29,941 nt of DNA, taken from contig JAMHUH010001067.1 of NCBI GenBank assembly GCA_035904925.1, positions 1-29,941 of the forward strand. The letters are read 5' to 3'. The DNA comes from Nannocystaceae bacterium (lineage in GTDB: Bacteria; Myxococcota_A; Polyangia; Nannocystales; Nannocystaceae). The notes beneath the pieces were generated by a model that did not search any database, was not told the origin of the DNA, and saw only the letters and a program-made list of their open reading frames with translations. The position numbers and the translations under genes are program-made. Shown piece after piece: positions 4,096 through 6,550 of this stretch; position 1 is the stretch's first letter, and every line of letters begins with the position of its first letter.

Positions 4096-4194
4096 GGGTT
4101 CAAGCTACCATGTGCGACCGATCGTGCCAACCCGACCCATGAAACTCGACTTTGGGCGAGTTGTGGAAGATGTCCTCGAAGCTAGCCTACGTGG

Positions 4195-5532
4195 ATGTAC
4201 GCACCATTGTCTCGTCGCCCCGCGGGTGTTCGCCATGATCGAGCAGGCAAGGTGGCTCATCCACGAGTGCTCATCGCTGAGCCCAGCCACCCCGAGGAGC
4301 GAGCGCTGAGCGGCGCGACCCCCTCGCTCGCACCCTCGCATTCAACCTCGCATTCAACCTCGAGCGACGCTGGCTTCAGTCGACTGTCCGCAGATCGGGT
4401 CGCACCCCTCATGGCTGCTCACGCGCGTTCACTCGACGCCGGAGATCGCGAGGTCGCTGATTTGGCGACCAGCACATCGCGGATGCACGTGAGCGCTGCA
4501 ACGGACCAATTGTTGGACCTCGTCGGCCGCCCGGCTGCGACGATTGGTGAGAACATGTTCATGCGGTCGGATGTGTGGAATGGGTGCGCGGATCGACGTG
4601 CTCAAATCTCACGCCACGAGCGGGCGCACGTCGAACGTTCGGTTCAACCTCGGCCTGGCGTCGTAGCGATCTTCCCCTATCCGAACGAATACGTGATCCC
4701 AAGCGCAAACTTGTATGCAGAGGACATGGTCGACCTGCTGATGGACCTCGGCATCAGCATCGACGAATGCGAGGTTCGCATTACTCGCGAGTCGGAAAAG
4801 TGGCAAGTTGCCGAAATTCGCGACGCGCTCGCCCGTCGTCACTTCTCCGAAGAAGAAAAGCGGCAACGTGCGCAAGCCGTGTACGCGCTGCTGACCGCTC
4901 AGCTGGCACAGATCGATCGAGGAAAGGCTGGGCCGGCCAAGCTGGCGCGCGCTTGGGTCACTTTCGGCAGCGTCGCCGACCGAGCTCCGAATGAGGAAAA
5001 GGGACGTTCGGAGCGGATCTCGGAGGCCCGCTACGCCGCTCATAAAACCCATTTTCAATATCGATTGGGCAGTTTGGCGGATGTCGAGACTGGCTTCGAT
5101 CGTGCCGCCATCGGCAGCGGAAACATGGCACCCCCGAACACGGACGTGCTGCCCTCGTATCCCGCGAGTGGACGGGGCTTCGTCGCGCAGGTCAACTTCA
5201 TCGGCCACGGCTCGACCGGCGACGAAGCGAGGTCGGTGTTCTACGATTTCGGTGCCGCGTATACGGCCAAAGATCTCCGCGAGGCACGAGGGCAGGGCAT
5301 GGAGTTCTCTCGCTACATGATCGACGGTGCGAAGATCCACTTGGAGGGCTGCTCGGTCGGAAAGGGCGAACTCGGGCGCCAGTATCTTTGTGAGGTCGGT
5401 GCGACATTTCTCGGTGAAAAGTCGGGTACGATCGTCGCCAACACTTGTGAGTCCAAGGCGTCGCCGAACGCGGACGAGGTCGTGCCCTGTGGGGCCATCG
5501 AGTTCGCCTGGCCCGCCGACTGTGAGCAATGA
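4195..5532 (+). CDS. protein with C-terminal clan-CD cysteine-peptidase-like (CHAT/caspase/legumain-like) domain; N-terminal region unknown
   Basis: A hydrophobic block followed by His-Gly (VNFIGHGSTG) sits about 45 residues upstream of a hydrophobic block followed by Cys (KIHLEGCSVGKG). This is the His-then-Cys dyad architecture of clan CD. Compare legumain YFTDHGSTG ... FYIEACESGS and CHAT h-x-A-x-HG ... LSACETG. The locus has markedly lower GC (about 55-58%) than its flanks. The true start is uncertain: the first roughly 100 codons have poor GC3 bias, so the start could be an internal Met. Confidence 0.55.
   Translation: MYAPLSRRPAGVRHDRAGKVAHPRVLIAEPSHPEERALSGATPSLAPSHSTSHSTSSDAGFSRLSADRVAPLMAAHARSLDAGDREVADLATSTSRMHVSAATDQLLDLVGRPAATIGENMFMRSDVWNGCADRRAQISRHERAHVERSVQPRPGVVAIFPYPNEYVIPSANLYAEDMVDLLMDLGISIDECEVRITRESEKWQVAEIRDALARRHFSEEEKRQRAQAVYALLTAQLAQIDRGKAGPAKLARAWVTFGSVADRAPNEEKGRSERISEARYAAHKTHFQYRLGSLADVETGFDRAAIGSGNMAPPNTDVLPSYPASGRGFVAQVNFIGHGSTGDEARSVFYDFGAAYTAKDLREARGQGMEFSRYMIDGAKIHLEGCSVGKGELGRQYLCEVGATFLGEKSGTIVANTCESKASPNADEVVPCGAIEFAWPADCEQ
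4335..4362 (+). repeat. 12-bp tandem repeat CTCGCATTCAAC x2.3
   Basis: Direct reading: ctcgcattcaac ctcgcattcaac ctcg. It lies in the N-terminal or upstream region of the 4195..5532 ORF and encodes SHSTSHSTS if translated. Confidence 0.7.
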
Positions 5533-5539
5533 GCTGCGC

Positions 5540-6550
5540 TCAGTCGTCGACGGGCTCAGCCGGGACCAGCACTGGCTCACCCGGGATGCCCAGATGCAGG
5601 ATCCGCGAGCCGGTCTGATTGACCGGGTGGGTCGAGCGACCGATCACGATCCCGTCTTCGGGGGCGAAGTACTCGGCTTGGGTGTCGCCGAAGATGTCGG
5701 CGACGCGGGCGACCTTCTCGCCCTTCGTGACCCGATCGGCGAGGTCGGGGAAGACCTCGAGCACGCCGCCGACCTCGGTGTACATCCAATAGGATCGGAC
5801 GCAGACGACCGGGTCATGGCCGGTGACCTCTTCGGTCGCGGGCAGCATGCCGAGCCGGGCGATCACGTTGCGGACCCCGATCTCGCCCTGCTCGATCAGC
5901 GACTCTTGAAAGCGGTTGGGGTTGCCGATCTCGACCGTGATCGCATGAATGCCGCGCTCCATCGCCGCGCCGCGCAGGGTTCCGTCGGCGCCCATGTTGT
6001 GGAGCAGGATCTGCGGCTGCTGGGCGCGGGCCATCCACGAGGTCTCGGGGTGGGTGAGGTCGGCGCGGACGTAGAGCGTGTTGATCCGGCCGAAGCTGGC
6101 CGTGTGCAGATCGATCATGTACTCGAAGTGGCAGGCGACGCGGGTCATGAAGCGGTGGGCATAGACCTGGGCTTGAGTCCCGCCGAGCTGGCCGGGCATG
6201 ACCCGGTTGAGATCCTGGCCATCGTTGAACTGGCGCGTGTTCATCAGGTAGCCAGGCACGTTGACGACCGGGACCGCGATGATCGTGCCCTTCAGCTGGG
6301 TCGCGTCGAGCTCGGCCATGAGGTTCTGGATCACGCGCACGCCGTTGAGCTCGTTGCCGTGCAGCGCCGCGGTCAGGCCCATGACCGGGCCTGGCTCGAC
6401 GCCGCGAGCGACCAGCACCGGGATCGAGACCAGCCCACCGAGGCCGTTGCCGACCATCGAGATTCGGAGTCGCGTGATCGTCCCGCGCGGAAACTCGCCG
6501 GGATCGAAGGACTCGACGACCTCGATGTGGTGGTGGCGGTGAGACGTCAT
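5540..6550 (-). CDS. succinylglutamate desuccinylase/aspartoacylase (AstE/AspA) family zinc hydrolase
   Basis: The LHGNELNG motif (His-Gly-x-Glu-x-x-Gly zinc-binding signature of the AstE/AspA M14-like family) is present. A second metal-ligand His lies further downstream in DLHTASFG. Length 336 aa. Confidence 0.8.
   Translation of the reverse strand: MTSHRHHHIEVVESFDPGEFPRGTITRLRISMVGNGLGGLVSIPVLVARGVEPGPVMGLTAALHGNELNGVRVIQNLMAELDATQLKGTIIAVPVVNVPGYLMNTRQFNDGQDLNRVMPGQLGGTQAQVYAHRFMTRVACHFEYMIDLHTASFGRINTLYVRADLTHPETSWMARAQQPQILLHNMGADGTLRGAAMERGIHAITVEIGNPNRFQESLIEQGEIGVRNVIARLGMLPATEEVTGHDPVVCVRSYWMYTEVGGVLEVFPDLADRVTKGEKVARVADIFGDTQAEYFAPEDGIVIGRSTHPVNQTGSRILHLGIPGEPVLVPAEPVDD

Follow-up and report, generated by a model that had tools for sequence, protein, structure and literature searches.

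Why does a single gene of foreign composition, with motifs reminiscent of caspase-like peptidases, stand among housekeeping genes of a myxobacterium, and what might its product do? The gene lies at positions 4195-5532 of a 29,941-nucleotide stretch of Nannocystaceae bacterium (GenBank assembly GCA_035904925.1, contig JAMHUH010001067.1), which was analysed at its full length and is called the window here. With moderate confidence, we interpret it as an orphan, horizontally acquired effector of the type of the toxins associated with extracellular contractile injection systems (eCIS), with a C-terminal cysteine-protease warhead; it would be delivered by an injection particle and would act as a protease in the target cell.

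The predicted C-terminal caspase-fold domain

The open reading frame (ORF) encodes a modular protein of 445 amino acids (aa), with the following parts:

4195..5532, + strand: toxin-like gene, complete, stop codon within the interval; 445-aa modular protein with DUF4157 and DUF4347-like parts
4195..4470, + strand: leader, aa 1-92; hydrophilic and rich in Ser, Pro, Ala and His; probably disordered, with neither a Sec signal nor a transmembrane segment
4471..4641, + strand: divergent DUF4157 / eCIS_core domain (PF13699), aa 93-149
4615-4629, + strand: HExxH motif HERAH, aa 141-145 (HEQAH in the homologue P0002)
4642..4941, + strand: aa 150-249, a linker or helical stretch; helices of low confidence in the full-length model
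4942..5529, + strand: DUF4347/Tce-like putative cysteine-protease domain of clan CD (caspase-haemoglobinase fold), aa 250-445
5206..5208, + strand: codon of His338 in FIGHG, the putative general base; in the domain model it immediately follows strand 86-92; aligned with Tce1 His186 (PMC13323088)
5350..5352, + strand: codon of Cys386 in LEGC, the putative nucleophile; in the domain model it immediately follows strand 131-140; aligned with Tce1 Cys240 (PMC13323088)

Judged by sequence comparison, the ORF is a real gene under purifying selection. Its ATG start is also used by the 448-aa homologue P0002, with 64-66% identity from end to end, and by the IMG gene call P0053; against P0002, the ratio of nonsynonymous to synonymous substitution rates (dN/dS) is 0.19 for the whole gene and falls to 0.12 in the C-terminal third (last 140 codons). 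Four further independent assemblies carry an identical copy of the protein, and a metagenome scan recovered the same locus alone. Searches of NCBIfam, PADLOC, PHROGs and PDB sequences with the ORF were all empty, and Pfam gave a single sub-threshold match, to eCIS_core/DUF4157 at aa 93-149, with no CHAT and no caspase match.

A preliminary description of the window, made from the sequence alone, had proposed a clan-CD domain of the CHAT, caspase or legumain kind from two motifs, VNFIGHGSTG and IHLEGCSVG. Both are present, as His338 and Cys386, with a spacing of 48 residues, and the proposed fold is borne out by the structural model. An AlphaFold2 model of aa 245-445, built from an alignment of 29 sequences (A2), reached a mean predicted local distance difference test score (pLDDT) of 95 and a predicted template modelling score of 0.90. 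Its topology, beta-alpha-beta-alpha-beta(GHG)-...-beta(GC)-alpha-beta-beta, is an alpha/beta/alpha sandwich of the caspase-haemoglobinase type, in which both dyad residues follow beta-strands (G-H94-G and G-C142 in domain numbering). The description had also named loss of the His and Cys among homologues as what would speak against its proposal. In alignment A2, Cys386 is kept in 29/29 sequences and His338 in 28/29, along with Gly-rich positions, D262, R279, K409 and N416; the fragment P0004 has Arg at the position of the catalytic Cys.

The nearest described proteins are Tce1 (PA0256) and Tce2 (PA2372), Hcp3-loaded putative cysteine-protease effectors of the Pseudomonas aeruginosa H3 type VI secretion system (T6SS) (PDB 9QPE; PMC13323088). 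The authors superposed Tce1 His186/Cys240 on the catalytic dyad of TcdB, found that the yeast toxicity of Tce2 is abolished by C115S, and noted that neither tce1 nor tce2 has an adjacent immunity gene (PMC13323088). Foldseek with our domain model ranked the MARTX cysteine protease domain first (4.7e-4), Tce1 second (1.5e-3) and caspase-7 next. The domain is structurally equivalent to the C-terminal domain of Tce1, with the dyad falling in the same columns, at a sequence identity of approximately 14%. The only PDB match of the A2 profile was likewise the Tce1 chain (E 0.32), with the GHG and GC of the family placed on chain residues H77 and C131; these are 54 residues apart, the same spacing as between His186 and Cys240 of Tce1. 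At the level of Pfam, 24/29 members of A2 match DUF4347 (PF14252; best 2.1e-12), and precomputed matches to this family exist for P0012, P0014, P0015 and P0016.

Neither the CHAT profile nor the Pfam C80 profile matched the window protein or any of the 29 relatives. C80-type clan-CD proteases are activated by inositol hexakisphosphate (InsP6). The domain is acidic (isoelectric point 5.4) and its only conserved basic residues in A2 are R279 and K409, so no InsP6 pocket is evident. The structural model and the profile searches thus support a clan-CD fold that is DUF4347/Tce-like and nearest to C80-type domains; the CHAT family (PF12770), which the preliminary description had listed for checking, drops out. 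By the same comparisons, the C-terminal domain would be a cysteine protease.

The last 50 aa also contain Cys399, 418, 432 and 443 (nt about 5389-5523), all four of which are kept in P0002, and a motif pair 'NTC...(E)CxP' is recurrent in many relatives. From their pattern in the sequence, the four Cys may form a disulfide or metal site.

DUF4157 and the genomic contexts of relatives

The N-terminal two-thirds had been described as having no nameable domain, a view that has to be revised. Profile comparison with hhalign of aa 59-167 (window protein and P0002) against 20 canonical DUF4157 segments gave a probability of 91.4% (E 9.3e-7) over positions 9-83 of 87, with the HExxH aligned to the HELTH of the 20 canonical members. 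At the sequence level, the N-terminus most probably carries a degenerate DUF4157/eCIS-core domain with HExxH. DUF4157 is a core, highly eCIS-specific domain that stands N-terminally in eCIS-associated toxins (EATs) with diverse C-terminal toxin domains (Geller et al., PMC8213781), and is found in 36% of known EATs compared with 0.06% of non-EATs (Danov et al., PMC11297309). Most DUF4157 proteins lack a second annotated domain (Danov et al., PMC11297309); in a 2024 survey this held for 983/1130 predicted DUF4157 toxins, which had no second named domain.

In a full-length AlphaFold2 model (three sequences in the alignment; pLDDT 38), the leader before DUF4157 has a pLDDT of 23-35; its grand average of hydropathy is -0.45 and 63% of its residues are disorder-promoting. 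No Sec-type hydrophobic region or transmembrane segment was found anywhere in the protein (maximum 19-aa hydropathy 0.86). By analogy with described EATs, the leader may serve as a packaging signal (PMC11297309).

To find relatives, 1.84 billion cluster representatives were searched exhaustively with HMMER (E ≤ 1e-3), and 51 proteins matched; a word-indexed homologue search returned the protein itself and one relative, and two proteins only when used with the domain alignment. Genuine HMMER matches are restricted to the C-terminal 120-190 residues of the query (aa 252/325-445), and in most of the matched proteins, whose lengths range from 170 to 840 aa, the aligned part is likewise C-terminal or nearly so. 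Four TPR proteins aligned to aa 23-95 (P0029, P0036, P0037 and P0042) were discarded as low-complexity noise, and for aa 150-249 the search found no relatives beyond the two closest homologues. Upstream of the domain, 22 matched proteins carry a canonical DUF4157 (...VRVHTD...AFTxGxDIxF...LLAHELTHVxQQ). Since the matches are confined to C-termini and 22 of them come with DUF4157, the C-terminal domain is a mobile module that is typically fused to DUF4157. The public annotation of the relatives reads merely "DUF4157 domain-containing protein".

The preliminary description had also pointed to the neighbourhoods of homologues, and these proved informative. Genomic context was readable for 11 loci, the window included, and 5/11 contexts lie inside contractile-injection operons; a further locus, L016, adjoins another eCIS_core gene:

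L006 (P0005): contractile injection system (CIS) tape-measure, VWA and AAA genes; two further eCIS_core genes; a separate DUF4347 gene
L007 (Leptolyngbya): tape-measure and AAA genes; a second eCIS_core gene
L010/L011: CIS_tube, Phage_base_V and gp25 genes
L013: WHD-AAA gene; a second eCIS_core gene
L014: gp19 tube, T4 baseplate, Pvc16_N and WHD-AAA genes
L016 (P0014): adjoins another eCIS_core gene

The DUF4347 gene of L006 (7234-7974, + strand; 246 aa; E 3.9e-5) stands alone in the same eCIS operon as P0005. At L016, an inositol-polyphosphate-kinase gene (8427-9200, + strand; PF03770, IPK) lies 1.5 kb downstream of P0014 and adjoins another DUF4157 gene, an arrangement of interest because of the InsP6 activation of C80-type clan-CD proteases. 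Homologues were found in no viral contigs and in no plasmid or phage records, and no synteny was found between the window and the Enhygromyxa homologue locus.

The kbl-astE junction

The islet of low GC content reported for the locus is real, and its depth had been overstated. The ORF has a GC content of 62.0%, compared with 68.3% for the whole window, and no other 1.3-kb stretch of the 30 kb is as low; the dip is confined to the ORF and its 99-bp upstream spacer and ends at the stop codon. The 55-58% originally given does not stand against this mean of 62%, and 54-57% is reached in single 100-150-bp sub-windows only. Compared with 22 other probable genes, the ORF is low both in GC (0.620 versus 0.690±0.014, z = -5.1) and in GC at third codon positions (GC3; 0.688 versus 0.896±0.036, z = -5.8), whereas the GC3 of the flanking genes is normal (0.87 and 0.90). 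As had been described, this one ORF fills the interval between a lipoprotein gene and an AstE-family gene:

3064-4095, - strand: lipoprotein gene, divergent from the toxin gene; lipobox LLLGC, N-terminus reading ...LGLLLGC
4096..4194, + strand: upstream spacer of 99 bp, common to the toxin gene and the divergent lipoprotein gene; GC 0.566; presumed promoter region
5540-6550, - strand: AstE/AspA-family deacylase gene, convergent with the toxin gene (PF24827, E 5e-34)

A scan of the spacer for a sigma-70 consensus or a terminator gave nothing, and the spacer showed no similarity to the one 5' of the homologous gene in the related locus L018. The toxin gene is monocistronic and flanked by housekeeping genes.

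Comparison with related Nannocystaceae shows that the junction between kbl and astE exists in three states. The window has the lipoprotein gene plus the toxin gene. Nannocystaceae bacterium ST9 shares 91-94% identity with the window in the flanking proteins, which places the host among the myxobacteria of this family, and its flanks are syntenic (S49-astE 83% and kbl 92% identical at the nucleotide level). In ST9, the 1.4 kb between astE and kbl (L017 8978-10351) hold a 444-aa ORF that looks secreted, has a host-like GC3 of 0.89 and shows no similarity to the toxin or to the window lipoprotein. In L018 (664-2726), kbl (92.7% aa identity) is followed by a 66%-identical toxin allele, of the P0002 type, and then by a truncated tyrosine-recombinase remnant, with no lipoprotein gene. 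Synonymous divergence between the window and L018 is 1.42 for the toxin alleles, compared with 0.25 for the adjacent kbl. The three states and this contrast in divergence mark the kbl-astE junction as a hotspot of gene replacement, at which the toxin gene is an accessory cassette. In the window, the variable segment spans 3047-5573 and, because it includes the lipoprotein gene, is wider than originally reported.

Horizontal acquisition, already suggested by the GC drop, is supported on compositional and comparative grounds by the GC3 anomaly, the absence of the gene at the syntenic site of ST9 and the divergent allele beside an integrase remnant in L018. No flanking direct or inverted repeats and no att-like scars were found around the ORF, and the only tRNA of the window is 5 kb away. 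The lipoprotein gene was considered as an immunity partner and ruled out; its GC3 is host-like (0.87) and it is missing beside the L018 allele, where the toxin gene directly follows kbl.

Elsewhere in the window, a 914-aa ORF of host-like GC3 (10841-13585, - strand) matches the eukaryote-type Major Vault Protein (MVP) repeat (PF17795, 7e-10) and MVP shoulder (PF11978, 4e-9) and, from these matches, may encode a bacterial vault-protein homologue. The tRNA, tRNA-Lys (anticodon TTT; 10579-10650, - strand), lies in the second low-GC stretch of the window (about 10350-10950, 58-62% GC), flanked by a small ORF (9799-10518; weak 'Bubble protein' match, E 8.5e-4) and the MVP-like gene. An N6/N4 DNA methyltransferase gene (21782-22867, + strand; PF01555, 1e-55) stands without a restriction partner that could be recognised in the genes around it. 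A PGA_cap capsule-synthesis ORF (17759-19708, - strand) and a Smr-domain ORF (19161-20120, + strand) overlap by approximately 550 bp on opposite strands, so at least one of their start codons is probably mis-assigned. An ORF at 27969-29645 (+ strand) carries the full planctomycete-type PSD/PSCyt set (DUF1587, DUF1595, DUF1592, DUF1588 and DUF1585).

Delivery, action and alternatives

The N-terminal DUF4157 and the homologues in eCIS operons indicate an injected effector. The immune or cell-death context that the preliminary description had hinted at finds no support, PADLOC having given no match. Such a protein would not be exported by Sec; its leader and DUF4157 would bring it into a contractile injection particle whose genes lie elsewhere in the genome. 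Most likely this would be an eCIS, with a T6SS possible given Tce1. After injection, the Cys386/His338 domain would act as a cysteine endopeptidase on proteins of the target cell, as proposed for Tce2. No immunity gene would be needed if, as argued for Tce1 and Tce2, the producer lacks the target or a cofactor required for activation.

Several observations weigh against an injected protease of this kind. No eCIS, T6SS or defence genes were found within the 30-kb window, and sheath, tube, baseplate, spike, tape-measure and AAA genes are absent from these 30 kb, of which only approximately 4 kb lie on the 5' side. Orphan homologues also occur in five further contexts: L005 (Enhygromyxa), L009, L012 and L015, with no injection genes in the sequence available, and L016. 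Both domain assignments fall below Pfam thresholds: aa 93-149 score 17.5 bits against PF13699 (E 0.0048; gathering score 22), and the C-terminal domain scores 12.4 bits against PF14252 (E 0.13; gathering score 24.6). The latter score, given that 24/29 relatives do match, makes the window protein a peripheral or sister lineage of DUF4347. Two relatives, P0039 and P0040, have GEG (Glu for His) instead of GHG while keeping the Cys, and may be inactive or mechanistically altered variants. Finally, protease activity has been biochemically demonstrated for no DUF4347 protein, and Tce1 showed no toxicity in either E. coli or yeast (PMC13323088).

Set against known systems, the protein is a divergent-branch member of two known kinds, the DUF4157 injected toxins and the DUF4347/Tce clan-CD effectors, and not a new kind of system. 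Like DUF4157 EATs such as EAT11 (a deaminase) and EAT14 (a transglutaminase) (PMC8213781, PMC11297309), it consists of a leader, a DUF4157 with HExxH, a linker and a C-terminal warhead; many EATs have no immunity gene, and the relatives of the window protein adjoin eCIS core genes and other DUF4157 genes. It differs in that its warhead is clan-CD and DUF4347-like, a family of which no mention was found in the two eCIS toxin papers PMC8213781 and PMC11297309 or in the supplements searched, and in that its DUF4157 is degenerate. In addition, EATs (Geller 2021, Danov 2024) are recognised by an eCIS core gene no more than about 10 genes away, and in the sequence available the window gene has none at that distance. 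Tce1 and Tce2, in turn, are not reported to have the N-terminal DUF4157; the window protein shares approximately 14% identity with this group and stays below the PF14252 threshold, its host is a myxobacterium, and its relatives are found in eCIS operons instead of T6SS loci.

The main alternative for the protease domain is self-processing as in Peptidase C80, with the domain cutting in cis, for example to remove leader and DUF4157 after delivery, and the real activity lying elsewhere or the cleavage serving maturation only. The C80 domains of Vibrio cholerae RtxA (MARTX), Clostridioides difficile TcdA/TcdB and Shigella OspB come closest in fold, yet there is no sequence-profile match and no conserved basic InsP6 pocket is evident in the acidic window domain, with R279 and K409 as its only conserved basic residues. 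In giant toxins, C80 domains lie internally and serve autoprocessing; the window domain, by contrast, is terminal in a 445-aa protein that has no other candidate warhead to release, and the toxicity of Tce2 needs its catalytic Cys (PMC13323088). We therefore regard self-processing as unlikely. Carriage by a T6SS, with the C-terminal domain of approximately 200 aa held inside an Hcp ring like Tce1 and Tce2 and not in an eCIS, draws on the structural match to Tce1 bound inside Hcp3 (PMC13323088), on the presence of DUF4157 in some T6SS effectors (PMC11297309, citing Wood 2019) and on the shared lack of an adjacent immunity gene. However, every informative homologue context is of eCIS type (tape-measure, gp19 tube, Pvc16, AAA) and none is of T6SS type, the window is without T6SS genes and the identity to Tce1 is only 14%, which leaves this route improbable as well.

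A gene that is orphaned from any injection locus, has a degenerate DUF4157 and has a counterpart in L018 beside a truncated integrase could also be what is left of a toxin cassette, in decay or domesticated and without a function today. That is quite improbable for a protein whose full-length frame is kept in two lineages under the purifying selection described above, strongest in the protease domain, whose HExxH, His338 and Cys386 are all retained, and which recurs unchanged in four further independent assemblies. Still less probable is a caspase- or CHAT-like effector of an anti-phage or programmed-cell-death system. In contrast to Craspase TPR-CHAT and the SAVED-CHAT proteins of CBASS, the protein has no CHAT or PADLOC match, and no partner sensor, nucleotide-signalling, cyclase, Cas or gasdermin genes were found nearby in the window; domain partners and genomic contexts differ, the gene being monocistronic among housekeeping genes and its relatives being DUF4157 fusions in eCIS operons.

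Within the preferred reading of an orphan injected effector, we tentatively consider a broader proposal, which we hold to be possible though not probable. The C-terminal domain would represent a clan-CD peptidase lineage that is as yet unclassified and is a sister of both DUF4347/Tce and C80; two different injection machines, eCIS and T6SS, would share it as a warhead. Its vehicle in Nannocystaceae would be an integrase-associated cassette of one gene that has entered the kbl-astE junction more than once and works at a distance from a dedicated injection operon, or even with none. If so, DUF4157 alone would suffice for recruitment to a distant machine.

A compact caspase-fold warhead of 200 aa that would naturally be packaged in injection particles could interest engineers of eCIS payloads. 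For the biology of these toxins, the locus connects the newly described Tce effectors of the T6SS (DUF4347) with the many DUF4157 toxins of eCIS, most of which lack annotation, and gives the C-terminal module a predicted fold and a testable catalytic dyad. In predatory myxobacteria, it offers a clean natural case of toxin cassette swapping at a fixed chromosomal hotspot.

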